Virus record (IMG/VR): IMGVR_UViG_3300037466_002336
Span: 20,013 to 84,012 of that record
Strand: one strand, 5' to 3'
Source of the DNA: a virus
Taxonomy: Duplodnaviria; Caudoviricetes
Length of the DNA: 64,000 bases
The notes under the pieces are model-generated. The model had not been told where the DNA came from, did no database searches, and was given only the letters and a program-made list of their open reading frames with translations. A program made the translations under genes and the position numbers. Shown here piece after piece: positions 24,340-59,069 of the stretch. Numbering within the stretch: the first letter of the stretch is position 1; each line of letters begins with the position of its first letter.

Positions 24340-24431
24340 GAGGTTTTTATACGGTGTACTCCGAAATGGGGATGGCGATGTCTGGAAAGGGTGGTAGGGT
24401 AGCCCGACTCGCGCTGTCTGATGGCAACGCG

Positions 24432-24932
24432 ATGAAGGTGGCCGCAACAACAATCATGGGGGTAGCAGCTTTGGAGCATGTAATCCGGTCCGCCGCTGAC
24501 GTTCGGACAGGTGGCGACGACGACCGCGACTTGGTGGCGCGCGACTCGGAGCCGCGGATGATGGCGGCGTACGTGCTGGTGCAGGTGGCGCGGCTGAGCA
24601 TGAGAGCGGCGCTCGCGCTTGTCCCGAAAGACCATCCTTGGTACGTCGCGGTCGGCGGCACGGTCAACGCCGTCGACGGACAGATGCGCCGCCATCCTCG
24701 GTGGGGGCTCGTTTCCCGTCGCGGCAGCCGCAACCTGACACGCAATCTGTGGGTCACGGTCGCGCTGCTCGTGGTGGCGCTGCTGGTCAGCGACAGCCTC
24801 GCGATCGGCCCGGTCGACCTCGGGTTGATCCACGACCAACACATCGGCCTTCATCATCTGCTGCACCTTCCGTGGTGGGGCGGCGCCGACCAGAACGCAC
24901 CCGACTTCTTCGGGTTGCGTCTGCCGTGGTGA
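24432..24932 (+). CDS. Putative membrane protein between integrase and repressor (start uncertain)
   Basis: GC3-rich frame from about 24500; TM segment LWVTVALLVVALLVS. Confidence 0.4.
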   Translation: MKVAATTIMGVAALEHVIRSAADVRTGGDDDRDLVARDSEPRMMAAYVLVQVARLSMRAALALVPKDHPWYVAVGGTVNAVDGQMRRHPRWGLVSRRGSRNLTRNLWVTVALLVVALLVSDSLAIGPVDLGLIHDQHIGLHHLLHLPWWGGADQNAPDFFGLRLPW

Positions 24933-24988: not shown

Positions 24989-25360
24989 TTACGCTCGGCG
25001 TCGCGCGCGTCGACCGGTGGACGCGACTGACGCCCACCGGTCGAAGTTCTCCAACGCACGCTCGAGGCCGACGTTGCGCGGGTCGAACAGCTCCCGGGCC
25101 TCGTTGAGTCGGTACTCGACGAAGTAGCGCGGGTCGATGTCGAGCACGCGCGCGCATTCCTCCATCACGGCGGGCGTCGGTTCGCGTTCCCCGGCGAGTG
25201 CCTTTCGGAGCGTCTCGTAGTGCACGCCGTCGAGCTCGTTGGCGAACACGTGCCAGTTCGGGTTGCCGGCGCTCGTGAGCCATCCGGTGTTCCCGGCGTC
25301 TCGGACGAGGTTGCTCATTGCGCGGCCGAAGCGCGCGCGGCTCGGTTCGACTCTCCTCAT
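24989..25360 (-). CDS. XRE-like HTH immunity repressor candidate
   Basis: FANELDGVHYETLRKALAGEREPT...ARVLDIDPRYF; leftward gene facing the divergent early operon. Confidence 0.7.
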   Translation of the reverse strand: MRRVEPSRARFGRAMSNLVRDAGNTGWLTSAGNPNWHVFANELDGVHYETLRKALAGEREPTPAVMEECARVLDIDPRYFVEYRLNEARELFDPRNVGLERALENFDRWASVASTGRRARRRA

Positions 25361-26785: not shown

Positions 26786-27450
26786 CGGACACCGTCAGCG
26801 ATCTACTCGAGCGGCTTCGAAGAAGTTGCGCGAGGCCGGGGGAGGTAGTGGATTCCGACCCCGGCCCCGCACGCACTAGAGGCACTACCACCGAGGCAGG
26901 GTGGCAGCACTCCGCGCAGCATAGCGGCACACGACGATGTCCCGCCCCGCTGCCGGCGCCGCGCCGTGCGCTCGTCGGGCGGGCACACGACCACCTGGCC
27001 GGGTATCCGGCGGTGGTGTGGCGCGCCGCCGACGTCCCCGAACGGGTGGAGGCGGCGATCCGGCAGGCCGGAAGCGCGGCGCTGCTCGCCGACGAAGGCG
27101 ACAACGACCCGCCGTGCACCCCCTGCGACGAACGGCCGCCGTTGTGGGTGCTCCGCAAACCGAACGGGATGCCGAACTACGCGAACGCCGCCGAGATGGA
27201 GCGGTACCTCCGTGAGTCCGGCTGGCTGACGTGGAGCAGTAACGGCGGCGGCCGGTACACGCCACCCGACGACGCATGGGAGCGGTGGGTTGCCGAACAG
27301 AACGACCCGCGGCGTGTGCCGCCGGCGGCGAAGGTTCCGCACGCACTGGACGGCACGCCGGAGGACCGGCTGGCCGAGGCAACGGTCGACGAACCGGAAC
27401 GGCTGGACGTCGACCATGAACACGAAGGGGGTGAGCTGGTTGCCGCATAG
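26782..27450 (+). CDS. Hypothetical; true start probably internal
   Basis: 3' two-thirds look coding; 5' part contains both regulatory motifs. Confidence 0.4.
   Translation: MTDTVSDLLERLRRSCARPGEVVDSDPGPARTRGTTTEAGWQHSAQHSGTRRCPAPLPAPRRALVGRAHDHLAGYPAVVWRAADVPERVEAAIRQAGSAALLADEGDNDPPCTPCDERPPLWVLRKPNGMPNYANAAEMERYLRESGWLTWSSNGGGRYTPPDDAWERWVAEQNDPRRVPPAAKVPHALDGTPEDRLAEATVDEPERLDVDHEHEGGELVAA
26873..26883 (+). promoter_or_regulatory. Motif GCACTAGAGGC (copy 6)
   Basis: Exact 11-mer, 22 nt after GGAGGTAGTGG (26841-26851). Confidence 0.7.
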
Positions 27451-27673
27451 CGGGTTGACAGAGCGGCAGAGCGAGGTCGTGTTGCTGGTCGCGGCTGGCT
27501 ACTCGAACAGCGAGGCGGCCGACGAGCTCGGCATCAGCACGCGCACGGTCGAGATGCACGTCACCGCGATCAAGGCGAAGCTTGGCGTTGCGAAACGCCG
27601 GATGATCCCGCGGGCGTACATGCAGGCGACGGGGGAGAACCCGTACCCGACGCTCGAAACGGCGGCGGCGTGA
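27431..27673 (+). CDS. LuxR/GerE-type HTH regulator
   Basis: LTERQSEVVLLVAAGYSNSEAADELGISTRTVEMHVTAIKAKLG. Confidence 0.85.
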   Translation: MSWLPHSGLTERQSEVVLLVAAGYSNSEAADELGISTRTVEMHVTAIKAKLGVAKRRMIPRAYMQATGENPYPTLETAAA

Positions 27674-33472: not shown

Positions 33473-33501
33473 GCCGGGCAGGGCGCGAAAGGAGGTAGTG
33501 G
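33473..33501 (+). promoter_or_regulatory. Leader motif GCCGGGCAGGG...AGGAGGTAGTGG (copy 1)
   Basis: Both parts exact; TTG at 33506. Confidence 0.7.
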
Positions 33502-33505
33502 ACAC

Positions 33506-34650: not shown

Positions 34651-36296
34651 GCACGTTGTTCGACGAGACACAGGAGACGACGCGGGCAATCAGCCTGCGC
34701 CCGTACCAGGAGGAAGCGAAGCTCGCGATCCATACCGCGTTCGAAACGTTCGACCGTGCGCTGATCCAGCTACCGACAGGGTGCGGCAAGACGATCGTGT
34801 TCGCGGCGACCGCACACGAGATGGGCTACCCGGTGCTGGTGATCGCACACCGTGACGAGCTGCTCGACCAGGCGGCGGAGAAGTTCCGCATGTGGGACCC
34901 CGGCGTCACCGTCGGCAAGGTAAAAGCAGAGTCCGACCAGTGGTGGACGGAGGTTGTGGTCGCGTCCATCCAAACGCTGTGGCGGCCGAAGCGGCTGGAG
35001 AAGCTCCGGCGGGTGCTCCGACAGAGGCCGTTCAAGCTCGCGGTCGTCGACGAGGCGCACCACGCGCCCGCCGACAGCTATCAGAAGGTGCTTGCAGTGC
35101 TGCACGAGTTCGACGTGCCGGTGTTGGGCGTCACCGCAACACCGGAGCGCGGCACCGGCGGCGGCCTAGAGGGAGTGTGGCCGACGCTCGCCTACCAGTA
35201 CCCGATCCTTCGCGCGATCCAGGACGGCTACCTGTCCGACGTGCGCGGCCTGCGCGTCGAGTTGAAGGAAGCGAACCTCGACCGGTTGAAGGTCAACCGT
35301 GGCGACTGGCAGGACGGCCAGATGGCCGAGATGCTGCACGACGCCGGCGCGCCCGGCTACGCGGTGAAGGCGTACCTCGAACACGCACCCGACCGGAAAG
35401 GGATCGTGTTCACACCGACGGTTGATCTTGCCTACGAGATGGCCGCCGCGTTCAACGACGCCGGGGTGCCCGCCGCGGCGATCAACGGCAACACGCCACG
35501 GACGGAGCGGCAGAAGGTGTATAGGGCGTTGCGCGAGGGGACGCTACGCATCGTCGCGAACGCGTCGGTGCTCACCGAGGGGTTCGACGAGCCGTCCGTT
35601 GACCTTGTCGTGATCGCCCGGCCGACGCTGTCACGGGTGCTGTACGTGCAGATGGTCGGCAGGGCGATGCGTTTGTTCCCCGGCAAGACCGACTGTCTCG
35701 TGATGGACCTCGTCGGCGTCACGGAGAAGCACAAGCTGCAATCGGTCGCCAACCTGTTCGGCGTTCGGGAGGAGATGATGCAGCGCGGCATGTCCGCTGC
35801 GGAGGCGGTGGCGGTGCAGGAGGCGCAGGACGCGGAGGAGCACGCCGAGCAGAAGCGTCTTGCCGAGATCGAAGCTCAGGTCATCGACCTGTTCACACAG
35901 CAGCGGCTCAACTGGATGAAGCTGCACCCGGAGCTGTGGGTGTTGCGCGGCCAGCAAGGGCAGCTCGAGCTTCGCGCGCAAGGCGACGGGACGTGGTCGG
36001 CGGCGTACAACCCCGACGACAAGCGCAGGCACCAGTACAACGTGCTCGACACCGGTGTGCCGTTGGAGGTCGCGCAAGGGCTGGCGGAGGACTATGTGCG
36101 GCGCGCCGGGGCGGAGCATTTGGTCGACCGGAACGCGCCGTGGCGGTCGAAGCCGGTGATGCGCGGGCAGATGGCCGCGTTGGCGAAGTGGGGCGTCGAC
36201 GGCGACCGGATCGCGACGCTCGCGACCGCCGGTGAGGCGTCCGACCTGCTCAGCGAGATGATCGCTAGGTCGCGGGCGAAAGGGGTGAAGGCGTGA
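34647..36296 (+). CDS. Superfamily II DEAD/DEAH-box helicase
   Basis: LRPYQ, PTGCGKT, VDEAHH, GVTATP, LTEGFDEP, QMVGR. Confidence 0.92.
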   Translation: MSTLFDETQETTRAISLRPYQEEAKLAIHTAFETFDRALIQLPTGCGKTIVFAATAHEMGYPVLVIAHRDELLDQAAEKFRMWDPGVTVGKVKAESDQWWTEVVVASIQTLWRPKRLEKLRRVLRQRPFKLAVVDEAHHAPADSYQKVLAVLHEFDVPVLGVTATPERGTGGGLEGVWPTLAYQYPILRAIQDGYLSDVRGLRVELKEANLDRLKVNRGDWQDGQMAEMLHDAGAPGYAVKAYLEHAPDRKGIVFTPTVDLAYEMAAAFNDAGVPAAAINGNTPRTERQKVYRALREGTLRIVANASVLTEGFDEPSVDLVVIARPTLSRVLYVQMVGRAMRLFPGKTDCLVMDLVGVTEKHKLQSVANLFGVREEMMQRGMSAAEAVAVQEAQDAEEHAEQKRLAEIEAQVIDLFTQQRLNWMKLHPELWVLRGQQGQLELRAQGDGTWSAAYNPDDKRRHQYNVLDTGVPLEVAQGLAEDYVRRAGAEHLVDRNAPWRSKPVMRGQMAALAKWGVDGDRIATLATAGEASDLLSEMIARSRAKGVKA

Positions 36297-37627
36297 CCGC
36301 GCAGCCAAGGCAGCAGACGGCGCCGCTGCCGCCGCAGAACCTTGACTCGGAGGAGTCGGTGTTGGGGGCGATGATGCTCGCGAAGGCCGCGGTCGTTGCC
36401 GTCGCCGAAACAGGTCTACGCGCCGAGCACTTCTATCGTGAGTCGCACGGGGTCATTTACGACGCGATGTTGGCGCTTGACGAACGCGGCGAAGCCGTCG
36501 ACGCGATCACCGTCGCCGACGAGCTCGACCGGACGGGCATGCTCGTCAAGGTGCCCGACGGCGCGGAGCGTGTACACGAGTTGGCCGCGTTGGTGCCGGC
36601 GGCGTCGAACGCTGCGCACTACGCCCGCATCGTCCGTGAGATGGCGACGCTGCGCGGCCTGATCCGTGCCGGGAACGACATCGCACGGCTCGGTTTCGAC
36701 CGTCCCGGCGACACCGCCGAGCTTGTCGACCAGGCGGAACGCATCGTGTTCGACCTGGCCGCCGGCGACGAGCACGGGCAGACGTACAACATGCGCGAGA
36801 TCCTCGAGGAGCGGTACCGGGCGCTCGTTGACGCGCACCGTGAGGGCCGCAAGATCAACGGTCTGCCGACCGGGTTCGCGAAGCTCGACGACCTGTTGTC
36901 GGGTTTGCAGCCGGGGTCGTTGGTGATCGTTGCGGCCCGCCCGTCGATGGGCAAGTCTGCGTTCGTTGTGAACGTCGCGACGAACGTGGTGCAGCACGAC
37001 GTGCCGGTGCTTCTGTTCACGTTGGAGATGTCCAGGGCGGAGGTCGCGCAACGGGTCATCATCAGCGAGGGTCTGATCGACGGCCAGAAGGCGCGCAGCT
37101 CGTCGCTGACCGCAGACGATTGGGACAAGCTGAAGTCGGCGTGTAAGGCGCTTGCTGACAAGCCGTTGCTGATCGACGAGACACCGGCGATCACGGTGAC
37201 GGAGGTGCGCGCGAAGGCGCGCCGGTTGAAGGCGAAGCATCCGAACCTTGGGCTTGTGGTCGTCGACTACTTGCAGATCATGGGGATGCCGGACGGCGAG
37301 AACCGCACGCAGCAGGTCGGCCGTGTCACGGCCGCGTTGAAGGCGCTCGCGCGCGAGCTTGAGGTGCCGGTGGTGGCGCTGTCGCAGCTCTCACGTGAGG
37401 TGGAGAAGCGGCATGACAAGCGGCCGACGTTGGCGGACCTTCGCGACTCGGGGAGCATCGAGCAGGACGCCGACGTGGTGATGTTCTTGTACCGCGACGA
37501 TCACTACCACGAGGACAGCGACCACGCCGGGACCGCCGAGGTGATCGTGGCGAAGCAGCGCAACGGCCCGACGGACACGGTGCGGCTCGCGTTCCGCAGC
37601 AGGTTCACCCGGTTCGACAACCTGTGA
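36293..37627 (+). CDS. dnaB: Replicative DNA helicase
   Basis: PPQNLDSEESVLGA, AARPSMGKS, VDYLQ, LSQLSR, DLRDSGSIEQDAD, KQRNGP. Confidence 0.95.
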   Translation: MTAQPRQQTAPLPPQNLDSEESVLGAMMLAKAAVVAVAETGLRAEHFYRESHGVIYDAMLALDERGEAVDAITVADELDRTGMLVKVPDGAERVHELAALVPAASNAAHYARIVREMATLRGLIRAGNDIARLGFDRPGDTAELVDQAERIVFDLAAGDEHGQTYNMREILEERYRALVDAHREGRKINGLPTGFAKLDDLLSGLQPGSLVIVAARPSMGKSAFVVNVATNVVQHDVPVLLFTLEMSRAEVAQRVIISEGLIDGQKARSSSLTADDWDKLKSACKALADKPLLIDETPAITVTEVRAKARRLKAKHPNLGLVVVDYLQIMGMPDGENRTQQVGRVTAALKALARELEVPVVALSQLSREVEKRHDKRPTLADLRDSGSIEQDADVVMFLYRDDHYHEDSDHAGTAEVIVAKQRNGPTDTVRLAFRSRFTRFDNL

Positions 37628-37933
37628 TGCAACACGTCCGGGTGGATCACCCAACCGAAGTGTTTGAAGATTCTGTGAACTTGTCTTGCGGAACACAGGC
37701 TGGAGAGTGAACATGCGGGAGCAACGCACGAACGGACATTGACAACCGAGCCAGCACCACGGGGAACGCAAACCCTCGAACCCCGTCCGGCCGAACCAAA
37801 TGACAGCGGTGGCACCGCTCACCAACAGCAGGGAGACGATCACTCCCAGGCCGCACGAATAGGGCAACGCCGGAGACGGCGACGCAGCGGCGCAGCGGCC
37901 CCGTGATGCAGGCTCGGAAGTCACCAAACCGTC

Positions 37934-37968
37934 GCCGGGCAGGGCGACACCGACCAAGGAGGTAGTGG
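37934..37968 (+). promoter_or_regulatory. Leader motif GCCGGGCAGGG...AGGAGGTAGTGG (copy 2)
   Basis: Followed by AACATG at the 37972 start. Confidence 0.75.
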
Positions 37969-37971
37969 AAC

Positions 37972-38358
37972 ATGGCGAAGAGCACCGAGTCCAAGGGCAA
38001 GCAGTACACGCCAGCGCAGCAGAAGGTCGTCGCGCGCATCGTCGAGCTGCGCAAGTCGGGGAAGGGGTACCCGGCGATCGCCGCCGAGCTGAACAAGGCC
38101 AAGACCCCGACGTTCGGCAAGGGCGCGCAGTGGTACGGGCCGGTCGTCCGTCACATCTGCATCCGCGAGCTCGGCTCCGCCGAGAAGTCGCTGAAGGCGG
38201 CGGGCACGAAGGCGCCGCAGCGCAACACCGACACCGTCGCCCAGGCCGCGGCACACGTCAAGCCGACCCCCGTCGAGGCGGTGCCCGTGAAGGCGACCGT
38301 GAAGCCCGACCCGAAGGTCAAGGGGTCGACCTCGCGCAAGTCGGCAACGAAGAAGTAG
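37972..38358 (+). CDS. Stand-alone serine-recombinase DNA-binding domain with Lys/Ala/Pro/Thr-rich tail
   Basis: VVARIVELRKSGKGYPAIAAELNKAKTPT...WYGPVVRHI. Confidence 0.75.
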   Translation: MAKSTESKGKQYTPAQQKVVARIVELRKSGKGYPAIAAELNKAKTPTFGKGAQWYGPVVRHICIRELGSAEKSLKAAGTKAPQRNTDTVAQAAAHVKPTPVEAVPVKATVKPDPKVKGSTSRKSATKK

Positions 38359-38370
38359 TCAGGTGGGGGC

Positions 38371-38435
38371 GGTGCCCCTACCGAGCGCGCGCTCCCCCTT
38401 TTGCGGCGGCGGGGCGCGCGCTCGGTAGCGGCACC
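38371..38435. terminator. 22-bp near-perfect inverted repeat
   Basis: GGTGCCCCTACCGAGCGCGCGC vs GCGCGCGCTCGGTAGCGGCACC, one mismatch, 21-nt loop. Confidence 0.7.
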
Positions 38436-38464
38436 AACCACGAACGCACAGGAGGCACGAGGCA

Positions 38465-39318
38465 ATGGACGCATACATCGAGCAGCTCACCAAGATCACC
38501 GCGGCGTTCAACGCCGTCGATGTTCACGCCGAGGTCGCGAACGTCGGCGATGGGTGCCTGAGCGTCGCAGTGTTCCCCCACGACGACGACCGTTGGGAGA
38601 CGGCGCTCGCGGGTGGCATGGGCGGCTACGACGACCCGCTGTCGTTCGACATCTTCGACCCGGACACCGGCGACCAGGTCGACACGCTCGGCGGCTACCT
38701 GGCACACGACGCAACGATCGCGCAGCTCGTCGAGGCGGTCGCGGTCAACGTGGTGTTCGCCGCGCTCCGGCGCGCAGCCGACCTCCGGTTCGTGAACCCG
38801 CCGTGCGCCCCGCACACAGTCGCGAAAGGGCGGGCCGCGTAGATGGTGAGGAAGAAGGGGCCGACCCCGCGTCGCAGGCACGCTGTCGAGGACAAGCTGC
38901 GCGCCGACTACCTCGCGCTCTACGAGGAGCTCGGCCGCGCGCAGACGCGCGCCGCGGACGCTGAGCAGGCGCTTGCGCTGGAGCGCCGCGAGGTCGACCA
39001 CCTGAATGACCTGTACACGGCGCAGACGCAGCGCCGCGCCGACGCAGAGCTGGCGCTTGAGCGGATCGCCGCGCACCCGCACGGAGGCATCCTCGTGAAC
39101 ATCGCGCGGCACGCGCTGTCGGAGGCGGCATGAGGGTACGCGTCGAGTACACCGTCGACGTGCCGGACGCGTACCGTCGCGCGATCAACTTTCACTACGA
39201 ACGGCCGGGGTTGGCGTCACCCGCGGCGGTTCGCGATTGGCTGATGTTGCACGGCAGCGCCCTGGACGACGACCTGACGTACGACCTTCAGCAACACGAG
39301 CCGGAGTGGTTCGCGTGA
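38465..39318 (+). CDS. Three hypotheticals (38465-38842, 38843-39133, 39130-39318)
   Basis: RBS or coupling and GC3 bias. Confidence 0.5.
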
Positions 39319-39360
39319 ACCGCCCGCTGGCGCAGGTGTAAGCGTTCAAACGACGACACG

Positions 39361-39388
39361 CCCGAGGCAGGGGCGAAGGAGGTAGTGG
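39361..39388 (+). promoter_or_regulatory. Leader motif variant CCCGAGGCAGGG...AGGAGGTAGTGG
   Basis: GTG start at 39390. Confidence 0.6.
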
Positions 39389-39389
39389 A

Positions 39390-40704
39390 GTGGACGACCC
39401 GAATGCAGACCTGATCGGCTTCGAGTACACGATGCGGAACAACGGCCGCTGGCGTGTGCGTGGAACCAGCCCGACGAGCGGCTCCGGCTACGTTGTGCTC
39501 GAGAACGTCGACGACCCGAGCGACACAGCGCTTCGACCGGCGGCGGTCGTGCGCATAAGAATGCATCTTGGTGCGCCTGAGGGACGGCCGTGACCGCGGC
39601 GATGATCCGCACCGCGGCCGCGCTTGTGGAGGAATACGACCTCGACAACGACGCGGTTGTGGCGTTCGTCGAGATCGGCAGCGAAGGCGCCGTGCTGCGG
39701 TTCGGTGCGAACGTGCCCGGCGGTGTGCTGGCCGAGTGGTGGATCGCCCGCGACGGCGCCTACCGGGAGCGCACGTGACTCGGCCGCTGACTGCGCTGGA
39801 AGAGAGCTCGTCTCGGACGAAGCGTGCGTGGCGCTATCGCGTCACCGCATCCGGCGGCTGTCTTGCCGAGCAGTGCCCTCCGGGGACGTTCCTGCTCGAA
39901 TGGGAGAACAAGGGCGACGAGTACGACTGGAACGTCTACGACAAGGGCGAGCAAACCGGCTTTGCAAGCGGCGTTCTCGTCGGCACCGGCTGGATCGTGG
40001 ACGACAAGTTCAAGGCCGATCCGCAGAAGTGCATGGCGTGCGGGAAGCGCAGGAAGGTCGCCGGTTGGTGGCACTCCGAGGCCGACGATCCTGTCCTCGA
40101 TCCCGTCTGCTCTGAATGCGGAGGCGCTCATGCGTCGTAACCGAATCCACGCTTCGAGTTCCGACACCTGGGACGCGTTGGCCGCCGAGGTGCGCGCCGA
40201 CCGTGTCGTAGCCGAACGCGACGAGGCGCTCGCCCAAGTGGACGCGCACGCCGCACCGGAGTGGAAGCAGCTCGCGTACGAGGCGGTGCGCAACGTCGCC
40301 CGCCGGCGCGCATCGTTCATCAGCGACGACGTGTGGGCGCTCACCGACCTGCCGCCCGCACGCGAGGATCGCGCGCTCGGTCCGGTGTTCCGCAAAGCGG
40401 CACACGACGGGCTGATCCGCAAGACCGACCGAACCCGGCCGTCGGTGCGTTCGCACCTTTCCGGCAAGCCGGTGTGGGAGTCCTTGATCTACGAAGGGAG
40501 GGCCGCGGCATGAACGGCAAACAGAGGGTGAAGGTCGCGGCGCTGGAGCGGCGCCGTGACCACCTCGTCGAGCGGTTGGCCAAGTGGGAGCGCGGTGACC
40601 CGGCCCGCACGCGCGGCGAGCTCGCGGCGGTGGGGTGGGCGTTGCGGCTGATCCGGGCGGCCGACAGCGCCGACGTGTTGAACGAGCTGGAGAGCGTGGC
40701 CTAA
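39390..40704 (+). CDS. Five small coupled hypotheticals (39390-39593, 39590-39778, 39775-40140, 40130-40513, 40510-40704)
   Basis: Overlapping stop/start pairs and GC3 bias. Confidence 0.5.
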
Positions 40705-40718
40705 GACAACGACAACCG

Positions 40719-40745
40719 GCCGGGCAGGGCCGAAGGAGGTAGTGG
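40719..40745 (+). promoter_or_regulatory. Leader motif GCCGGGCAGGG...AGGAGGTAGTGG (copy 3)
   Basis: Followed by AACATG at 40749. Confidence 0.75.
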
Positions 40746-40748
40746 AAC

Positions 40749-40994
40749 ATGGCGAAGGACAAGCAGACGGCGCACGCGCCGGACGCGTCAACGGTCGGCT
40801 ACGTGGTGGTCGACTTCAACCGGGACACCGGCAAGCCGTCGTTCGCGTGGAACGACGAGATCCACAGCACGGTGACGGAGGCCGCCGACGACGCCGAGCA
40901 GGCACGCGGCCTTGACCGTGACGAGTACGCGGTCGCTGAGCTGCGGCTGATCGAGAAGCCGCGCGCCGGTTCTGTGTCCGAGGTGGCGGCGTGA
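40749..40994 (+). CDS. Hypothetical protein, 81 aa
   Basis: Strong RBS. Confidence 0.6.
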   Translation: MAKDKQTAHAPDASTVGYVVVDFNRDTGKPSFAWNDEIHSTVTEAADDAEQARGLDRDEYAVAELRLIEKPRAGSVSEVAA

Positions 40995-41908
40995 AGTTGG
41001 TGATTGCAAGCGCCAAATCCACCAACTCGAAGATCGGCGACGCGGCAACCACATACGCGGCGCAGCAGTCGTGCCCGACGTCGTGTGTGTTCCGTGACGG
41101 CGGCGGCTGCTACGCGGAAGCGGGCAGCATCGGCAAGTTCATCACCGACCGGTTGAACGCGTCGGCGGACGGTGTGACGGCGCTCGAGGTGGCGTACGCG
41201 GAGGCGGCAGCCATCGACCGGATGACGGTCACACCTGGGAAGCCGATGCGTCTGCATACCGTCGGCGACTGCGCCACCGACGAAGCGGCACGGATCGTTG
41301 CGGCGGCATGCGACCGGTACGTACAGCGCGGCGGCGGCACGGTTTGGACATACACGCACGCGTGGCGTGACGTCGCCCGTGAGTCATGGGGGAACGTGTC
41401 GGTGCTCGCGTCATGCGAGACGGTCGCGGACGTCTTTTGGGCGAGGCAGCGCGGCTACGCGACGAGCATCGTCGTGGACAAGTTCCCGACCGAGAAGAAG
41501 TACGAGCTGGTCGACGACATGTCGTACCCGTGCGGCCCTGGCCCCGACGGGCACGTAGGCGGGTTGGCGCCGCATCCCGGACAGGACGTCGTGCCGTGCC
41601 CGTCACAGACCAGGGGTATCCACTGCACCGACTGCCGTCTGTGCTTCGACGACGGCAAGCTCCGGCGGGGCGGCGTTTCGATCGGCTTCGAGGTGCACGG
41701 CACCCCGCTCACACAGAAGAAGGCGCTGCGCGCGTTGGATGCACCCGACGACCCGGAGCGGCGGCTCACGTCCCGTGACCATGCGGTGCGGTTCCGGGAT
41801 ATGAACGGCCGGTGGCCGCGGCCGGTCGAGCTTGCGACGGTCGCCGGGGTGAACACGTCGAGCGCCTCCGAGATGCTCCGCCGGATGCGCGACGAGGTGG
41901 CGGCATGA
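40991..41908 (+). CDS. Cys-rich Gp88/DUF7227-like protein
   Basis: SCPTSC...GCYA, RLHTVGD, WTYTH, VLASCET, CPSQ...CTDCRLC. Confidence 0.6.
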   Translation: MKLVIASAKSTNSKIGDAATTYAAQQSCPTSCVFRDGGGCYAEAGSIGKFITDRLNASADGVTALEVAYAEAAAIDRMTVTPGKPMRLHTVGDCATDEAARIVAAACDRYVQRGGGTVWTYTHAWRDVARESWGNVSVLASCETVADVFWARQRGYATSIVVDKFPTEKKYELVDDMSYPCGPGPDGHVGGLAPHPGQDVVPCPSQTRGIHCTDCRLCFDDGKLRRGGVSIGFEVHGTPLTQKKALRALDAPDDPERRLTSRDHAVRFRDMNGRWPRPVELATVAGVNTSSASEMLRRMRDEVAA

Positions 41909-43689
41909 CCGCGCTCGCGGAGATGGTCGTGACCGACGACGACATCGACAACTGCGGGTTCCGCATGTTCGAGCTGCACGAGATCGCCGCGACGATGGCG
42001 TTCCACGACGACTACGTGGTGCTCGGGAACAAGCGCGAGCGGATGGCGCAGTACGGCGGCGCCGTCACCCCGCCCGTGGCCGAGCTGCTGTTCAGCCGGG
42101 TGCTGGAGGTCATCGCGGACGTCGTCGACGGCGACCCGACGTTCAAGGACATGTTCTGCGGCGCCGGCGGCACGTCCCAGGGCGCACGCAGGGCGGGCGG
42201 CAAGCTCGTGCTTGGGCTGAACCACTGGCGCCGCGCGATCGAGTCGCACAGCGCGAACTTCCCCGACGCCGACCACGACTGCGCCGACATCAGCGCGCTC
42301 ACCACGACGCAGATCCGTCGGTACCCCGACAGCGACGTGCTGCTCGCGTCGCCGGAATGCACCAATCACAGCATCGCGAAGGGTGGGCTGCGCAGGAAGC
42401 CGCAGGCGGCGTCGTTGTTCGACGACGGCCCGGCCGGGGACGACGAGCAGGACCGGTCGCGCGCGACGATGTGGGACGTCGTCCGGTTCGCCGAGCAGAA
42501 GCAGCTCAAGGGCAAGCCGTACAAGGCGATCATCGTCGAGAACGTCGTCGATGCGTTCAAGTGGGGCGCGAACGACGACGGCGGCCTGTTCGCCGCGTGG
42601 CGGATGGCGCTGACGAACCTCGGCTACGAGTCCGAGATCGTCTATCTCAACTCGATGTTCGTGCCGCCGACACCACAGTCGCGGGACCGCATGTACGTCG
42701 TGTTCTGGCAGAAGGGCATCCGGCGACCAAACCTCGAGGTGGACCCGGTGTCGTGGTGCCCGCACTGCGAGGCGGTCGTCAACGGCAGGCAGGCGTGGAA
42801 GAAGCCGACGGCACCGTGGGGCCGGTACGGGGCGCAGTACCTCTACCACTGCCCCGACTGCAACCGGCCGGTTCTGCCGGGCGCCTACCCGGCCATCAGC
42901 GCGCTCGACCTCTCCATCCCGATGACCCGCATCGGCGACCGGGAGAAGCCGCTCGCGAAGTCGACGCGGGAGCGGATCCGGCGCGGGCTGCCGAAGCTCC
43001 AGGAGCCGTTCGTGATCCGGCTGCTGCACGGCGGCGTGCCGCGTCCGCTGACGCTGCCCATCGTGTCGCTCACCCGGCGGCAGGACATGGCGATCACGGT
43101 GCCGACGTCAGGGCAGACGCACGAGCGGACGCCCGGCAACCGCACCCGCATCGCCGACCTTCAGCCGGGGGCGACGGTGTGCGCAGCGACGCGCTCCGTC
43201 GACCGTGCGCTCGTCACACCACACGACACGTTGGTGATGGCGAACACCGAGAACGGCGTCCCGCGCCCGGCCGCCAAGCTCGCCGCGCAGACGTTGCGCA
43301 CCGAAGGCGGCCTCGGTGTGGTGCGTCTGCGAAACAACGGGCAGGTCACCGACGCCGCGTTGGAGTACGCCGGCGCGGTCACCGCGGGCGGCAAGCACCA
43401 CGGCCTCGTGATGCGAAACAACCGCGGCGGCGGCGAGATGCTGACACCGGACGACACCGAGCCGTTCCGTGTGCTCACGACGCGGTGCCATCAGTCGCTC
43501 GTGGTCCCGTACGGTGCGCTCGCGCGCGACGGCGGACTGGAACCGTCGGCGACGGTCATGACCCACGACCGGCACGCGCTGATCGTTCCGCCGATGGGCG
43601 GTGTCGACCCGCGCGACGCCGCGCTCGAGCCGGGGCCGACACAGACCACTACGACACGGGCAGCGCTCGTCACGAAGGAGGTGGCGTGA
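41905..43689 (+). CDS. C5-cytosine DNA methyltransferase, circularly permuted (motifs IX-X before I)
   Basis: FRMFELHEI...QYGGAVTPP precede FCGAGG (42154), SPEC (42349), ENV (42538), PQSRDR. Confidence 0.85.
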   Translation: MTALAEMVVTDDDIDNCGFRMFELHEIAATMAFHDDYVVLGNKRERMAQYGGAVTPPVAELLFSRVLEVIADVVDGDPTFKDMFCGAGGTSQGARRAGGKLVLGLNHWRRAIESHSANFPDADHDCADISALTTTQIRRYPDSDVLLASPECTNHSIAKGGLRRKPQAASLFDDGPAGDDEQDRSRATMWDVVRFAEQKQLKGKPYKAIIVENVVDAFKWGANDDGGLFAAWRMALTNLGYESEIVYLNSMFVPPTPQSRDRMYVVFWQKGIRRPNLEVDPVSWCPHCEAVVNGRQAWKKPTAPWGRYGAQYLYHCPDCNRPVLPGAYPAISALDLSIPMTRIGDREKPLAKSTRERIRRGLPKLQEPFVIRLLHGGVPRPLTLPIVSLTRRQDMAITVPTSGQTHERTPGNRTRIADLQPGATVCAATRSVDRALVTPHDTLVMANTENGVPRPAAKLAAQTLRTEGGLGVVRLRNNGQVTDAALEYAGAVTAGGKHHGLVMRNNRGGGEMLTPDDTEPFRVLTTRCHQSLVVPYGALARDGGLEPSATVMTHDRHALIVPPMGGVDPRDAALEPGPTQTTTTRAALVTKEVA

Positions 43690-44164
43690 TGTACCTCGTC
43701 ACGGTTCGCGTTCGCATGGCGGGCGACCCCGGTTGGGAGCACAACCTCGAAAGCGACTTCGAAGACGCGGCCAAGCGGTACGGGTACAACGACGGGTCGC
43801 GGGAGACTGTGAAGTTCGACGTGGCGATCCGCACCGTGCACGCGTTCCTCAAGATCGACAACGCGGCGTTCATTGAGGATGCGGTCAGGCGCGCGGTCAG
43901 AGACGTGATCGACATCGTGTCGCCGTGCGCCGGCGCCGGGCTTGCCGTGCTTGCGGTGAACGCGGAGGCGACGTGATCGAAGCGGTCGATGCTGTGCCGA
44001 CGAAGCAGCCGCCTGCGGACGTGAAAGCGGAGCTGCTGTTGCGATGGTCGCGCACCCTCAATGAGCACCGGCTGCCGTTCCGTGAGTGGTTGCGCGCCGT
44101 CACGGCAGGGGCGCTCGAGCCGGGGCCGACGCAGACAACGACCACCAGGGCGGCGTTCGTCACG
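43621..44164 (+). repeat. 54-bp diverged direct repeat (43621-43674 and 44111-44164)
   Basis: About 46/54 identical, first 20 bp exact, same peptide encoded. Confidence 0.85.
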
Positions 44165-44412
44165 TCGCCGGAAGGGAGGAACGCATGATGAGGGGAACGC
44201 TGTACCACCATCCAGGCGAGGGCGGCGACGAGCGGTTCCTGGTCGTGCTCGACTACGAGCCGCCGCGCGAGTCCGGAAAGATCGCCGTCGTCGACGCGCT
44301 GATCCTGACCCCGACCAACATGCTCGCGGCGGTCGGTCGGCGCGTGGCGATCCCTCGCGACGAACTGGAGAGCGGATGGCACGAGCTCGACGTCGACGAG
44401 GCGGCGGAGTGA
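43689..44412 (+). CDS. Three hypotheticals (43689-43976, 43973-44188, 44185-44412)
   Basis: Coupled; the middle one ends with a copy of the MTase C-terminal peptide. Confidence 0.5.
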
Positions 44413-44585
44413 CCGTAACCGTCGACCTCGCCTACCTCCGCGATCGTCTCGCCCGCGCTCGGCTTGCCGGCGACGACGGGCGGAACGTCAACATCTACTG
44501 CAAGGGCGAACCGGCGGAAGCGGTAGTCGTCGGTCCGGGCCGGCGCGGTGTGTCTGTGCTGCGGCACCGCGGTGCGGGTGGTGAC

Positions 44586-45068
44586 GTGAGCGCGGCGGCA
44601 ACGTTCTCGCCGTGTCGCACATGGCGGTACACGCTGCACCGCGACGTCGCACCACTCACCGGAAGCGGACGCGTCGCGTTCATCGGGTTGAACCCGTCGA
44701 CAGCCGACGAGACGCGCGACGACCCAACGATTCGGCGGTGCATCCGCTTTGCACGCGACTGGGGCTACGCCGAGCTCGTGATGCTCAACGCGTACGCGTA
44801 CCGCTCAACCGACCCCGCCGGGCTGTGGGAAGTCGGCGATCCCGTCGGTCCAGACAACGACGAGTGGATCGCCCGCGAGAGCGGAGCCGCGAACCTCGTG
44901 GTGTGTGCGTGGGGCGTCCACTGCGACGAGCAGCGGGAGCGCGAGGTGCTCGCGTTGCTGCCACCGCGCCCGCGCGTGCTCGGGTTCACAAAGGACGGCC
45001 ATCCGAGGCACCCGCTGTATATGCGCGCGGACACGACGCCGGTCAAGTGGTGCCCGGAGGCGGCGTGA
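44586..45068 (+). CDS. DUF1643 protein (frame is open from GTG 44409)
   Basis: FSPCRTWRYTL, FIGLNPSTAD..DDPTIRRC, NAYAYRSTDP, HPRHPLY. Confidence 0.85.
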   Translation: MSAAATFSPCRTWRYTLHRDVAPLTGSGRVAFIGLNPSTADETRDDPTIRRCIRFARDWGYAELVMLNAYAYRSTDPAGLWEVGDPVGPDNDEWIARESGAANLVVCAWGVHCDEQREREVLALLPPRPRVLGFTKDGHPRHPLYMRADTTPVKWCPEAA

Positions 45069-45340
45069 TGGCGGTGTACGTCGACGACGCGTTCATCCCC
45101 TGGCGGCGCGGCGTGTGGTGCCACATGCAGGCCGACAGTCTCGACGAGCTGCACGAGTTCGCCGCGCGCCTTGGGATGAAGCGTGAGTGGTTCCAGCCCG
45201 GCTCGCGGCCCGAGACGGCGCACTACGACGTGACGAAGACCCGGCGCGCGCTCGCGGTGAAGCTCGGCGCGATCGAGGAGACAACCCGGCAGGGTTCCGA
45301 GCGGCGGCGCGCAGCGGCGCGCAGAAGGCTGGCCGCGTGA
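45068..45340 (+). CDS. DUF4031 protein
   Basis: VYVDD...WCHM.ADSLDELHEFA..LG.KR.WFQ...HYDV. Confidence 0.85.
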   Translation: MAVYVDDAFIPWRRGVWCHMQADSLDELHEFAARLGMKREWFQPGSRPETAHYDVTKTRRALAVKLGAIEETTRQGSERRRAAARRRLAA

Positions 45341-45972
45341 GCCTCCTGCTGCACACAACGGCGCACGCAACGATGCTGCGCTGGCGGCATCCGCACAGCG
45401 GCCGCCTCCTTCAGCCGCGCCATTACGGCCAGGCGGCCGAGACGGCGGCGGCGGGCATCCCGTGGGCGGCTGACAACGACTGCTACCAGGGACTCAACGA
45501 GGCGGCGTACACCGCGATGCTCGACGCGATCGCCGGGGTGCCCGGTTGCCTGTTCGTCACAGCCCCCGACGTGGTGGGCGAGCACGGCCTCACCGACCTG
45601 TGCTTCGAGGAGTGGGCGCCGCGGGTGCATATGCGCGGGCTGCCGGCCGCTTACGTGTTGCAGGAGGACGGACCGGAGTACGAGTCCCGTCCGATCCCGT
45701 GGGGTGCCATCGACGCGTTGTTCATCGGGTTCGCGCTCGACGACAACAAGCTCGGGACACGGGCCGCCCAGGTGGCGCGGGAGGCGAAGCGCCGCGGCAA
45801 GTGGGTGCATTGGGGCCGCGTCAACTCGGAGCGCCGCATCACCTACGTGAAGTCGACAGGCGCCTGCGACTCGTTCGACGGCACCGGGTGGGCGAAGTGG
45901 CGCGACGCAAACCTGCCGCGCGGGCTGGCCGCGGCCGCGGCGCCGACACAGCTCGCGTTGGAGTCCGCATGA
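45337..45972 (+). CDS. TGT/DpdA-like TIM-barrel protein (divergent)
   Basis: WAADNDCY, APDVVG, WVHWGRVNS, CDSFDGTGW parallel the DSG, DV, H.FG and S.DS motifs of DpdA. Confidence 0.5.
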   Translation: MSLLLHTTAHATMLRWRHPHSGRLLQPRHYGQAAETAAAGIPWAADNDCYQGLNEAAYTAMLDAIAGVPGCLFVTAPDVVGEHGLTDLCFEEWAPRVHMRGLPAAYVLQEDGPEYESRPIPWGAIDALFIGFALDDNKLGTRAAQVAREAKRRGKWVHWGRVNSERRITYVKSTGACDSFDGTGWAKWRDANLPRGLAAAAAPTQLALESA

Positions 45973-46175
45973 TCGCGACGCGGGAGCAGCTACTCGAACG
46001 GTGCCTCGCGGAGCAGCGCCGAGCCGACCGGCACAAGGCGCACGCGTGGCGGCTTGGCCGGAGGCTGCGTCAAGCGGAGGAGGAGCTGGCGCGCGCGAAC
46101 GCGCGGCTCGAGGAGCTGGAGTGCGAGGTCGCAGCGATGTACGCGACCACCGACGCGACACGGGAGCCGTTCTGA
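45969..46175 (+). CDS. Small coiled-coil hypothetical
   Basis: Coupled. Confidence 0.45.
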   Translation: MIATREQLLERCLAEQRRADRHKAHAWRLGRRLRQAEEELARANARLEELECEVAAMYATTDATREPF

Positions 46176-46654
46176 TGGGCTGGACGGTGTGGACGGACGG
46201 CTCCGGCACCACCGGTGGCCCGGCCGGTGTCGGCTTCTACGCGATCTGCGACGACGACGCTTTCGGGGAAGGCACGTTCACCGGGTCGTTGTCGTTGCCG
46301 AACGCGACGAACCAGCAGGCGGAGCTTCTCGCTGCTGCGTTCGCGCTGCACTCGCTGACGGAGCTGTGCCAGGGGGAGCAGCAGGACGTCACGGTGGTGT
46401 CGGACAGCGAGTACGTGGTGAAGGGCTGGAACGAGCAGCGCCGTAGGAAGGCGAACGTCGCGCACTGGCAGCGGCTCGACCGTGCCGTGGCCGAGCATCG
46501 TTCGGTGACGTTCATGTGGACGCGCGGGCATGCGGGGACGGAGGGAAACGAGGAGGCTGACCGTTTGGCGCGGGTGGCGCGCGAAGAGGCGAAGCAGCAG
46601 GCTGAGCCGCCCGAGGACGTGTGGATGCAGCTTGCGCGCGAGGCGGCGGCGTGA
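46175..46654 (+). CDS. rnhA: Ribonuclease HI
   Basis: TDGS, TNQQAEL, SDSEYV, RGHAG..GNEEADRLA. Confidence 0.9.
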   Translation: MGWTVWTDGSGTTGGPAGVGFYAICDDDAFGEGTFTGSLSLPNATNQQAELLAAAFALHSLTELCQGEQQDVTVVSDSEYVVKGWNEQRRRKANVAHWQRLDRAVAEHRSVTFMWTRGHAGTEGNEEADRLARVAREEAKQQAEPPEDVWMQLAREAAA

Positions 46655-46890
46655 ACGATCAGCTCGCGCTCACGGTCGAGCCTGCTTTGCGTTGGACCGC
46701 CCGCTGCATCTGGTGCGGTGCGGTGCTTGACGACTTCACCGACGAGGAGCTTGCGACGGTGGCCGCGGGGATGCCGGAGAAGGCGTGGCAGGAGGCGACG
46801 ATGTGGGCGCACCTTGCGGTCAAGGTGCACGAGCCGACGTGCCCCGAACGCGCATCTTCACAAAACCCGAACACCACGTCGGGGGCATGA
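46651..46890 (+). CDS. Hypothetical protein
   Basis: CIWC and HEPTC; coupled. Confidence 0.45.
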   Translation: MNDQLALTVEPALRWTARCIWCGAVLDDFTDEELATVAAGMPEKAWQEATMWAHLAVKVHEPTCPERASSQNPNTTSGA

Positions 46891-46920
46891 TGCGAACATG
46901 GCGGTGGAAATACCCACCAC

Positions 46921-46932
46921 GCACTAGGAGGC
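46921..46932 (+). promoter_or_regulatory. Motif variant GCACTAGGAGGC
   Basis: One-base insertion, 9 nt before ATG 46942. Confidence 0.6.
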
Positions 46933-46941
46933 GCTACCGCA

Positions 46942-47238
46942 ATGACCCTCACCACCACCCTCACGATCAAGACAACCCCGGAGCTTCAGACCGGCGACGT
47001 CGTTGTCACCCACGGCATGCGCTGCTTGATCGACGGCGAGATGCGCGTCACCGAGTACGGCGACCGCCCGGTACATCACTACCAGGCGCTCGTGCTCAAC
47101 CGCGACGACGTGCCGAACGAAGTCGTCCCGGTGAGCTGGACGCGCGACTGGCAGCGCAACGGCCGCCCGGCCGAAAACGGAGAGCACCGCTGGACGATCC
47201 AGGGCAACGACCTCGCCCGCTGGTCGGTCGAGAACTAG
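46942..47238 (+). CDS. Hypothetical protein, 98 aa
   Basis: Strong RBS, GC3 bias. Confidence 0.6.
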   Translation: MTLTTTLTIKTTPELQTGDVVVTHGMRCLIDGEMRVTEYGDRPVHHYQALVLNRDDVPNEVVPVSWTRDWQRNGRPAENGEHRWTIQGNDLARWSVEN

Positions 47239-47260
47239 GAACCGTCAACCCGCAGACGTC

Positions 47261-47289
47261 GCCGGGCAGGGCGGCACAGGAGGTAGTGG
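47261..47289 (+). promoter_or_regulatory. Leader motif GCCGGGCAGGG...AGGAGGTAGTGG (copy 4)
   Basis: Followed by AACATG at 47293. Confidence 0.75.
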
Positions 47290-47292
47290 AAC

Positions 47293-47757
47293 ATGACCAT
47301 CGCAGAGGCGAAGCGCAGCAAGGACGACGTCCTGTACACGCGGCTGATGGCTTGGCGTGGCATCAGCGAAGGTGACGGCACGAGCGGCGGCTACGCGCAG
47401 TTCCAGACGTGCGACAAGTGCAAGCGCACCACCGACGACGACGGCAAGCCGGTGTACTGCCGCGGGTTCGTGTCGGAGGCGATGTGGTGCTTCGAGTGCT
47501 TCCTCGCCTACGGCGACCCGCCGCGGCGCGCGCCGGTCGAGCGCAAGCCCGGCGGCAACAACTCGGAGGTAGAGCGCACCGAGGGTCAGCTCACCGTCGT
47601 CGCCCGCATCATGGAGATGCGCGGTGAGGGGATGGGCTACCCGAAGATCGCGGCGCTGCTGAACGAGGCCGGTGTGCCGACGTTCGGCAGGCCCGGCGCG
47701 AAATGGCACGGACCGACCGTCCGCAACATCGTGCTCAAGCAGAACGGCCAGTCGTGA
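47293..47757 (+). CDS. Zn-finger plus stand-alone serine-recombinase DNA-binding domain
   Basis: CDKC...C..CFEC; C-terminal VVARIMEMRGEGMGYPKIAALLNEAGVPT...WHGPTVRNI. Confidence 0.75.
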   Translation: MTIAEAKRSKDDVLYTRLMAWRGISEGDGTSGGYAQFQTCDKCKRTTDDDGKPVYCRGFVSEAMWCFECFLAYGDPPRRAPVERKPGGNNSEVERTEGQLTVVARIMEMRGEGMGYPKIAALLNEAGVPTFGRPGAKWHGPTVRNIVLKQNGQS

Positions 47758-47954
47758 CCGGCGGCACCGTCGTCAACGTCGGCTGCGTCGTGCTGATCGC
47801 GTTCTCCTGCTGGTCGCTCACCCGCGACTGGCTGCGCAACCGGAACGAACGGCTGCGGCTGCACCTGTCGGAGTTCGTCGACGTGCACGGCGTCACCTGG
47901 GTCGGCGAGGACCTCGCCGAAGAAGTGGAGGTGTGGCTGCACGAAGTCGCGTAA
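47754..47954 (+). CDS. Small TM-containing hypothetical
   Basis: Hydrophobic N-terminus; coupled. Confidence 0.45.
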   Translation: MTGGTVVNVGCVVLIAFSCWSLTRDWLRNRNERLRLHLSEFVDVHGVTWVGEDLAEEVEVWLHEVA

Positions 47955-48224
47955 CCCCGACCAACCTGTGCTGGCGCACAGCCGAGCGCGCGCGGCGGGT
48001 CGCGTGGGCTACCTGGCTGTAACGAGCTCTGGGCGTGGCCGCGTCCTCATGTGGGAGGGGACGCGGAGAGTCTGAGCGGAAGCCCCATCGAGGGCAAGCC
48101 GTGCGGGCCGCTCTACCGACAACACGGTACCGGCCTTACTCGTGCGCGAGAGGCAACACCGCGCGCCGCGCGCTCGGCTGTGCGCCAGCACCGAACCGAG
48201 ACAACGACAAGGAGGTGGGAAGGC

Positions 48225-48494
48225 ATGGACCAGAAGGAGAGGCGGCAGATCGAGCACACCGTCGCGATGGTGCGCGAGCTGACCGAGCTCGAGACGGGCG
48301 CACGCGTGGGCGTCGACATTTCGCTTGTGGACCCGGACGTGTTCGACTCGCTCGACGGCGAGGTGAGACGCGAGGACGCGTACACCCCGGTCAAGACTGT
48401 GTTCGCGGACGGCCGCGGCAACTACGTGCACGTCTACCGTGCCGCCCCGTACGACCGTGACGGCGCCCGCAGGATCGAGAAGGGGGTCGCGTGA
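48225..48494 (+). CDS. Hypothetical protein
   Basis: AAGGAGG RBS, ATG 48225. Confidence 0.55.
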   Translation: MDQKERRQIEHTVAMVRELTELETGARVGVDISLVDPDVFDSLDGEVRREDAYTPVKTVFADGRGNYVHVYRAAPYDRDGARRIEKGVA

Positions 48495-48773
48495 TGGTCC
48501 TCGTGTTCGCGGACCGCGGCGAGCGGTGGTGGCATCAGGCGGCTGCGTGGCTGCTTGGGTTCATGGAGGGGCGCGGTGACCTCGGGTTGACGTGGGACGA
48601 CCCGTACACACCGCGCAGCGTCGCCTACGACCACGGCCGCAACGTGCGCCGTCTCGGAAGAACGTGACAGCCGCCGGCGTGTAAAGGGAATGTGCACTCC
48701 GTTCCAGGATTTCCACCACACGGAGTGCATATCCCACCCTCTGACGTCCGACGGTGCCCGTACGGTTCTGATC

Positions 48774-49211
48774 GTGCACCGGATCGGTCTGACGCACAGC
48801 TTCGACGCCGCCCATCGCGTCGTCGGCCACCAGGGGGGCAAAGGCAAATGCGCCCGCCTGCACGGCCACACGTACACGGTCGACCTGTCGATCGAGGCGC
48901 CCGAGCTCGACGTCACCGGGTTCGTCGTCGACTTCGGCGAGCTGAAAGACGAGATCAACCGGTGGGACCACCGCACGCTGCTGTGGGCCGACGACCCGAT
49001 CGCGGACGCGCTCGAGTGCAACGGGTGGGGCGAGTCGCTGGTGCGGCTGTCGTTCAACCCGACGGCCGAGAACATGGCCGCCTGGCTTGCGCGCAAGCTG
49101 TACACGCTCACAGACCAGAAGGAGGCACGCGTCACCGTCACGGTGCGCGAGACGGCAAAGAGCGCCGCGACAGCCTCCTACCCTGCGACCAGCGGGTGCG
49201 CGTGCGCGTGA
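48774..49211 (+). CDS. queD: 6-carboxy-tetrahydropterin synthase (start may be 48690)
   Basis: FDAAHR...CARLHGHTY...VVDFGELK...DHRTL...PTAENMA. Confidence 0.9.
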   Translation: MHRIGLTHSFDAAHRVVGHQGGKGKCARLHGHTYTVDLSIEAPELDVTGFVVDFGELKDEINRWDHRTLLWADDPIADALECNGWGESLVRLSFNPTAENMAAWLARKLYTLTDQKEARVTVTVRETAKSAATASYPATSGCACA

Positions 49212-58949: not shown

Positions 58950-59030
58950 CCCCCACCTTTACCCCTCACGAAATCCTAACGTTCGGGTGGAGTGTCCACC
59001 GGCACGGTTGGCATCATCACCGGTGACAGC

Positions 59031-59067
59031 GCCAGGCAGGGTGCGCAACCGGAATGGGAGGTAGTGG
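59031..59067 (+). promoter_or_regulatory. Leader motif variant GCCAGGCAGGG...GGGAGGTAGTGG
   Basis: ATG at 59070. Confidence 0.6.
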
Positions 59068-59069
59068 GG

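Follow-up and report, generated by a model that had tools for sequence, protein, structure and literature searches.

Two free-standing copies of the recombinase-domain helix-turn-helix of large serine integrases in the early arm of a temperate siphovirus-like actinophage

The 64,000-nucleotide stretch of DNA analysed here (the window) covers bases 20013–84012 of the 84,012-bp IMG/VR virus record IMGVR_UViG_3300037466_002336, which CheckV rates as complete and whose genes are arranged like those of a temperate siphovirus-like actinophage. It contains two short open reading frames (ORFs), here called gpA and gpB, that each encode a helix-turn-helix (HTH) of the kind found in the recombinase domain (RD) of large serine integrases (Table 1). 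Coding signal is strong in both, with a GC content at third codon positions (GC3) of 0.97 for gpA and 0.93 for gpB, and each gene has a strong, consensus ribosome-binding site. BLASTP aligns the two proteins over a common domain of roughly 60 residues (54% identity over 59 amino acids, 73% positives, E value 3e-20), so the motif that a first-pass annotation had noticed in both ORFs is shared far above chance; at the DNA level, the genes share 73% identity across 103 nt. In gpA the domain occupies the N-terminal part (residues ~14–70), in gpB the C-terminal part (~97–151). Judged from these alignments, gpA and gpB are paralogous small proteins.

Table 1. Coordinates in the window of gpA, gpB, their predicted parts and leaders, the phage integrase and a regulator gene
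Feature	Position	Strand	Evidence
gpA, 128 aa: stand-alone recombinase-domain HTH and basic disordered tail	37972..38358	+	ORF, PF07508, phrog_95
gpA residues 14–77: predicted three-helix HTH (helices 14–28, 33–42, 56–67) and short helix 4 (70–77)	38011..38202	+	AlphaFold2, Foldseek, VIA-align
gpA residues 78–128: disordered basic K/A/P/T-rich tail with terminal basic patch	38203..38355	+	pLDDT, charge
KPDPK motif, gpA residues 111–115	38302–38316	+	
gpA leader: hairpin GTCGCC-GGGCAG-GGCGAC (37931–37948), then AGGAGGTAGTGGAAC (37957–37971) abutting the ATG	37931..37971	+	sequence, fold, motif search
gpB, 154 aa: N-terminal Cys-cluster region and C-terminal recombinase-domain HTH	47293..47757	+	ORF, PF07508, phrog_95
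gpB residues 40–69: CxxC-N12-C-N9-CxxC, putative zinc ribbon	47410..47499	+	Cys pattern
gpB residues 97–151: predicted HTH (helices 97–111, 116–126, 140–151)	47581..47745	+	AlphaFold2, identity to gpA domain
gpB leader: hairpin GTCGCC-GGGCAG-GGCGGC (47258–47275), then AGGAGGTAGTGGAAC (47278–47292) abutting the ATG	47258..47292	+	sequence, fold, motif search
Large serine integrase (Int), extent of the open frame; ~495 aa from the first in-frame ATG	22852–24453	minus	Resolvase 110 bits, Recombinase 63.5, Zn_ribbon_recom 25.2
HTH_3-type regulator	24989–25360	minus	

The shared motif had been read at first as the RD of large serine integrases, and four independent lines bear this out, namely matches in Pfam and in PHROGs, PDB sequences found with a family profile, and the comparison of structures. 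The best Pfam family for both proteins is PF07508 ('Recombinase'), which is matched over half its length (gpA at positions 1–48 and gpB at 6–49 of 102) with 20.9 bits for gpA and 20.1 bits for gpB (20.3 and 19.7 in a whole-genome search), short of the curated cut-off of 21.1; the close relatives P0005 (28.2 bits) and P0009 (23.3 bits), described below, exceed that cut-off at the same positions. Neither gpA nor gpB covers the full domain of HTH, β-sheet and last helix: downstream of the HTH, gpA continues with one short helix and then its disordered tail, and gpB stops seven residues past the match. Both proteins match phrog_95, 'integrase', at positions ~260–308 of 651 (E value 1e-6 for gpA and 4.5e-7 for gpB). 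A profile built from 57 family sequences returned the SPbeta integrase (YokA) as the sole significant protein among PDB sequences (residues 189–277, E value 6e-5); with a profile of gpA and gpB alone, nothing in that collection was significant. In tblastn searches against cultured phages, gpB reached serine recombinases of Streptococcus phages only; neither it nor the relative P0047 had a stand-alone homologue there, every match being a full serine recombinase or invertase, and gpA and P0009 gave no match. A word-based homologue search with gpB returned the protein itself and nothing else.

All structural results come from predicted models. AlphaFold2 gives block-mean predicted local distance difference test (pLDDT) values of 93–97 for gpA residues 11–70, 85 for 71–80 and 92–98 for gpB residues 101–150, and the models have three helices with a long loop of the large-serine-recombinase (LSR) type ahead of the recognition helix. 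Foldseek superposes the gpA model locally on the SPbeta integrase 9y66_A (root mean square deviation of 1.4 Å over 57 columns). A wide search with VIA-align, which is independent of Foldseek, places the LSR 9dxd_A first (Z 6.7), with further recombinases at Z 5.6 (Bxb1), 5.4 (Sin), 4.9 (LI) and 4.8 (PhiC31) and many generic HTH proteins at Z 4.5–6. In the ESM Atlas, all six structural neighbours of gpA are recombinase-family clusters, and its feature neighbours are small PF07508/PF20552 proteins. The Foldseek and VIA-align scores are modest, as a domain of only about 60 residues would lead one to expect. Kinship is proved not by the structure on its own but by the structure in combination with the three sequence tests.

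The part of the integrase that is shared can be named. In the LI integrase, helices αF, αG and αH of the RD form an HTH subdomain that resembles the resolvase HTH, and αH sits in the major groove, where it contacts only 3 bp (PMC3783163). Positions 1–48 of PF07508 correspond to this αF–αG–αH subdomain of the RD (also DBD1). The domain of gpA and gpB is homologous to it, so that the two proteins carry the RD HTH as a free copy. The same order of αF, αG, long loop and αH is found in the integrases of SPbeta (9dxd, 9dxh and 9y66), LI (4kis) and Bxb1, and the RD and the two phage proteins have in common the signature I-A-x-x-L-N-x-x-G-x-P-T-x-x-G-x-x-W-x-x-x-x-V. Compared to large serine integrases, gpA and gpB are without the β-sheet, the fourth core helix, the αE linker, the catalytic domain, the zinc ribbon and the coiled coil. 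The C-terminal HTH of small serine recombinases (HTH_7; Sin 2r0q and Tn3 resolvase 5cy1) has the same three-helix layout (VIA-align Z 5.4 and 4.6), but does not match in sequence, and gpA and gpB differ from it by a long loop of LSR type that connects helices 2 and 3.

That neither protein has a catalytic Ser domain had already been noticed, and a search with Resolvase (PF00239) at E ≤ 10 indeed leaves both unmatched; Zn_ribbon_recom (PF13408) does not match either one, the Cys cluster of gpB lying N-terminal of its HTH. Lacking a catalytic domain, a recombinase zinc ribbon and a coiled coil, gpA and gpB are incapable of recombining DNA. PF07508-like stretches occur in the 84-kb genome in Int, gpA and gpB only, and Int is its sole full recombinase-domain protein. 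The alignment of gpB with Int has 26% identity over 47 amino acids and is not significant (E value 0.49), and the domain of gpA does not align with Int. As the first-pass annotation had also remarked, gpA and gpB are each far closer to the other than to Int, and they show no detectable recent descent from the phage's own integrase.

Outside the HTH, the two proteins differ in their accessory parts. The 51-residue tail of gpA contains 9 K, 8 A, 6 P and 7 T, carries a net charge of +8 (the isoelectric point of the whole protein is 10.4) and is modelled at a pLDDT of ~60, devoid of secondary structure. C-terminal tails rich in Lys, Ala and Pro are found in HU-type nucleoid proteins of actinobacteria and in histone H1, and that of gpA is alike in composition, charge and disorder. 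These properties fit the 'histone-like' label first given to the tail. Tandem repeats, PAKKA-type or other, are absent from it; it carries a single KPDPK followed by a terminal R/K patch instead, and the folded domain is an HTH, not HU. Close to the C terminus, gpA and five representatives of the family (P0019, P0032, P0083, P0109 and P0142) have KP[DE]PK and then an R/K patch; in these six otherwise diverged members, (A/V)KPDPK(P) lies ~15–25 residues from the C terminus, the gpA stretch being residues 111–128 (38302–38355). A rough composition estimate puts the chance expectation of KP[DE]PK at ~0.03 in 34,000 residues. That six representatives have kept the motif speaks for selection on what the tail does. 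Instead of plain low complexity, this could be a short linear motif that recognises DNA or a partner protein.

In gpB, Cys residues at positions 40, 43, 56, 66 and 69 form a CxxC-N22-CxxC pattern plus C56, which has no Pfam match. The CxxC pairs that the N-terminal zinc finger proposed at first would need are present; the region is poorly modelled (pLDDT ~50, ranging over 45–63) and its zinc-finger-type structural neighbours (IBR, RING and C1) are weak, with TM scores of 0.32–0.43. Because the AlphaFold model of this region is poor, the putative zinc ribbon is assigned from the Cys pattern only. The relatives P0019 and P0032 combine an N-terminal Cys/His cluster and a KPDPK tail in one protein, and gpA and gpB may have arisen from one such architecture by sub-functionalisation.

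To place the two proteins among their relatives, we built a profile from the domain they have in common and compared it with 1.84 billion cluster representatives, of which 564 match at E ≤ 1e-3 and 23 at E ≤ 1e-10. Among the best 149 of the 564, PF07508 is matched by 135, Resolvase by 40 and PF20552 by 24. A census of the best 150 of the 564 divides them into 65 single-copy proteins without a catalytic domain (many of 50–150 amino acids), 40 that likewise lack one and in which the module is repeated two to seven times in tandem, and 45 with a resolvase catalytic domain ahead of one to seven copies. The relatives nearest to gpA (P0005–P0012) have 44–60% identity and are metagenomic singletons, named in their sources, where at all, 'hypothetical protein' or 'Recombinase'. 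PF20552 (HTH_62, 'Recombinase-like helix-turn-helix domain') is a curated family of recombinase-like HTH modules outside classical integrases; its 24 matches among the 149 nearest relatives are mostly tandem arrays, and gpA and gpB do not match it even at E ≤ 10 (family cut-off 27 bits). We found no tested HTH_62 protein in the literature. Free RD-HTH modules, as small PF07508-only proteins and as PF20552, are thus a large and recognised family, and gpA and gpB are new members of a known family without characterised function. The RD HTH core evidently circulates as an independent module. It is found on its own, in tandem arrays with as many as seven copies, and following zinc fingers, HNH-like motifs or resolvase catalytic domains.

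Three to seven tandem RD-type HTH copies accompany a resolvase domain in P0011, P0022, P0025, P0027, P0037, P0071 and P0127, and stand without one in P0015, P0021, P0038, P0043, P0057, P0078, P0134 and P0143. We know of no description of a serine recombinase in which an array of HTH repeats replaces the RD, the zinc ribbon and the coiled coil. The 6,907-residue P0023 was matched at E value 4e-11 in nine short stretches, at profile positions 25–51 only; we rejected it as a relative, as the domain HMM finds no copy in it and the match is probably a repeat or low-complexity artefact. Pattern-based locus scans of IMG/VR and, in a first round, of metagenomes with the family alignments found nothing. 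A further metagenome scan with P0012 gave mostly short matches of 26–30 amino acids, many on human-gut contigs, and a scan of species genomes gave a single full LSR, in Mariprofundus.

The first-pass annotation had noted the same leader in front of gpA and gpB, but this leader is not specific to the pair: other genes have AGGAGGTAGTGGA or AGGAGGTAGTGGAACATG leaders too, and we rejected the shared leader as the mark of a special pair. The 18-mer AGGAGGTAGTGGAACATG also lies upstream of an unrelated 81-amino-acid ORF at 40749 (leader 40722–40748), where the leader equals the gpA copy over 25 nt, into the first codons. The 13-mer AGGAGGTAGTGGA, with an upstream GGGCAG or GAGGCA hairpin, recurs at 33476–33502 and before ORF 39390 (39366–39389), with stems that differ in sequence, and a degenerate copy with the loop AGGCAG lies at ~59030–59068. 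Hairpin and AGGAGGTAGTGGA leaders stand ahead of at least five genes in the window, that is, at least three besides gpA and gpB. The leader is a phage-wide, start-associated element that does not single out the two genes, and it resembles start-associated sequences of cluster K mycobacteriophages. Searches with Rfam at the gathering threshold gave no match in 36000–49000, and promoter and terminator scans around the gpA and gpB genes gave nothing exceeding shuffles.

What the two proteins do can be approached from their fold, their accessory parts and their location. It is reasonably probable, in our judgement, that gpA and gpB bind double-stranded DNA through their HTH, helped by their accessory parts, and have a regulatory or architectural function in the phage's own programme. 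We infer DNA binding from the predicted fold, and the contribution of the accessory parts and the regulatory or architectural function likewise. The third helix (W-Y/H-G-P-V/T-V-R-H/N-I) would lie in the major groove of DNA, as in integrases. Because the isolated RD HTH makes few base contacts, the module alone reading ~3 bp in an integrase (PMC3783163), it would need additional affinity or specificity. This could be supplied in gpA by the disordered basic tail with its KPDPK and R/K patch and in gpB by a Cys4-type zinc ribbon, and relatives appear to meet the same need by tandem arrays. The recognition helices, WYGPVVRHI in gpA and WHGPTVRNI in gpB, differ at exposed positions (Y/H, V/T and H/N), and the targets of the two proteins are therefore probably different. 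As both genes belong to the early arm, among replication and DNA-modification genes, they most likely serve the phage programme in a regulatory or architectural role, and gpA and gpB do not appear to be parts of the integration machinery.

Several observations weigh against this interpretation. The Pfam scores lie just below the curated cut-off, and the structure scores, which come from models, are modest (Z 6.7 at best), with generic HTH proteins scoring nearly as high. In the profile alignment, Y237 of the SPbeta Int pairs with a Pro conserved in gpA and gpB; in SPbeta Int, this Tyr contacts bases and is inserted into the major groove (PMC11722253). By this alignment, the reading head is unlike the one in known integrases, and the proteins could also bind in another way. 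Moreover, no candidate operator sites for gpA or gpB were identified, and we found neither a publication on stand-alone RD-HTH forms nor a characterised member.

The first-pass annotation had offered transcription factors, directionality factors and integration blockers as possible roles. A DNA-binding protein or transcription factor is plausible on the evidence above; the other two, which would make gpA and gpB accessory to the integrase, either as a DNA-binding recombination directionality factor (RDF) or as competitors for half-sites of the attachment site (att) that block integration of the phage's own or rival elements, found no support, given the Pro in place of Y237 and a kinship to Int that is not significant, and we regard them as unlikely. 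Their appeal is that the module is of the same kind as Int uses on the inner att half-sites, that RDFs of LSRs are diverse, and that a classical RDF of the Xis type is indeed not evident in the 84-kb genome, where HTH_17 (PF12728) has a single weak signal of 14.8 bits and no match in gpA or gpB and no RDF-like PHROG or Pfam matches were found around Int. Such an absence does not make RDFs of gpA and gpB, however. Identity to the RD of Int is only 26%, with different recognition-helix residues, and the genes lie 14 kb (gpA) and 23 kb (gpB) from int, within replication and modification operons. The isolated RD HTH of LI Int makes few base contacts and tolerates substitutions (PMC3783163), structurally characterised RDFs bind the zinc-ribbon/coiled-coil region of the integrase and not DNA (PMC11722253), as the SPbeta RDF does in binding DBD2 and the coiled-coil hinge of Int (PMC11722253), and the family occurs in many architectures, tandem arrays included.

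About as improbable is a role of gpA and gpB as dedicated readers of the GGGCAG-loop hairpin and AGGAGGTAGTGGA leaders, which would form an autoregulated regulon at the DNA or mRNA level. Both genes do stand directly behind such a leader, with near-identical hairpin stems, and at least five genes in the window have one; this is co-location only, though, and unrelated genes have the leader as well. Besides, this type of HTH is known as a binder of double-stranded DNA, and the covarying stems suggest an element that acts at the RNA level. We likewise give little credence to the idea that an integrase module was re-used in a phage-wide, autoregulated control of translation or transcription starts through the leaders, or that gpA and gpB form a new DNA-binding class of directionality or exclusion factors for serine integrases. 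The two genes could also be non-functional remnants of decayed serine-recombinase genes, or encode a generic HTH that resembles the RD by convergence, as their coverage of half the PF07508 model at scores just below the cut-off and the closeness of generic HTH proteins to LSRs in the structure search might suggest. This is the least likely of these alternatives: the ORFs are intact, with high GC3 and consensus ribosome-binding sites, the copies retain 54% identity, a catalytic domain is absent from more than 100 cluster representatives, features flanking the HTH (helix 4 and the KPDPK tail) are conserved, the long 'PTxxGxxW' loop of the LSR RD is present, and the only significant PDB sequence match is an LSR.

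The phage is a compact case of the wider pattern, with a full integrase and two diverged free modules that have different accessory parts. The finding is modest, being explainable and with nothing pointing to an unusual mechanism. Mapped targets of gpA and gpB would give the family its first function and show the specificity of an isolated RD HTH, which bears on the re-targeting of serine integrases.

The genome around the two genes has a GC content of ~68% along the whole length of the window, in which no tRNAs were found. A megablast search of 37500–48000 against cultured phages returned zero matches, so that at the DNA level the phage has no close cultured relative. A synteny search through DnaB led to one distant IMG/VR locus, its phage matches being uninformative. 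Long ORFs, presumed to be structural genes, occupy the plus strand to ~21.4 kb, and the plus-strand early arm encodes an HNH endonuclease, SSB, a recombinase/repair-like protein, a replication initiator, helicases and DnaB (ending at 37627). The weak HTH_17 signal mentioned above, the sole one of this MerR/Xis type in the genome, is at 27500–27616 on the plus strand (14.8 bits, cut-off 27), in ORF 27290–27673, ~3 kb from int and directly ahead of the HNH endonuclease gene; from this match, it is a possible excisionase-like candidate. Between dnaB and gpA lies an unusually long non-coding gap of 344 bp (37628–37971), with locally lower GC and a TTGACA, in which a simple scan for sigma-70-type promoters found none. 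A DNA-modification set at 40991–49211 comprises DUF7227, a C5 methyltransferase of 625 amino acids, DUF1643, DUF4031, RNase H and a QueD-like gene of the 7-deazaguanine pathway, and spans the region between the gpA and gpB genes plus a short stretch past gpB.

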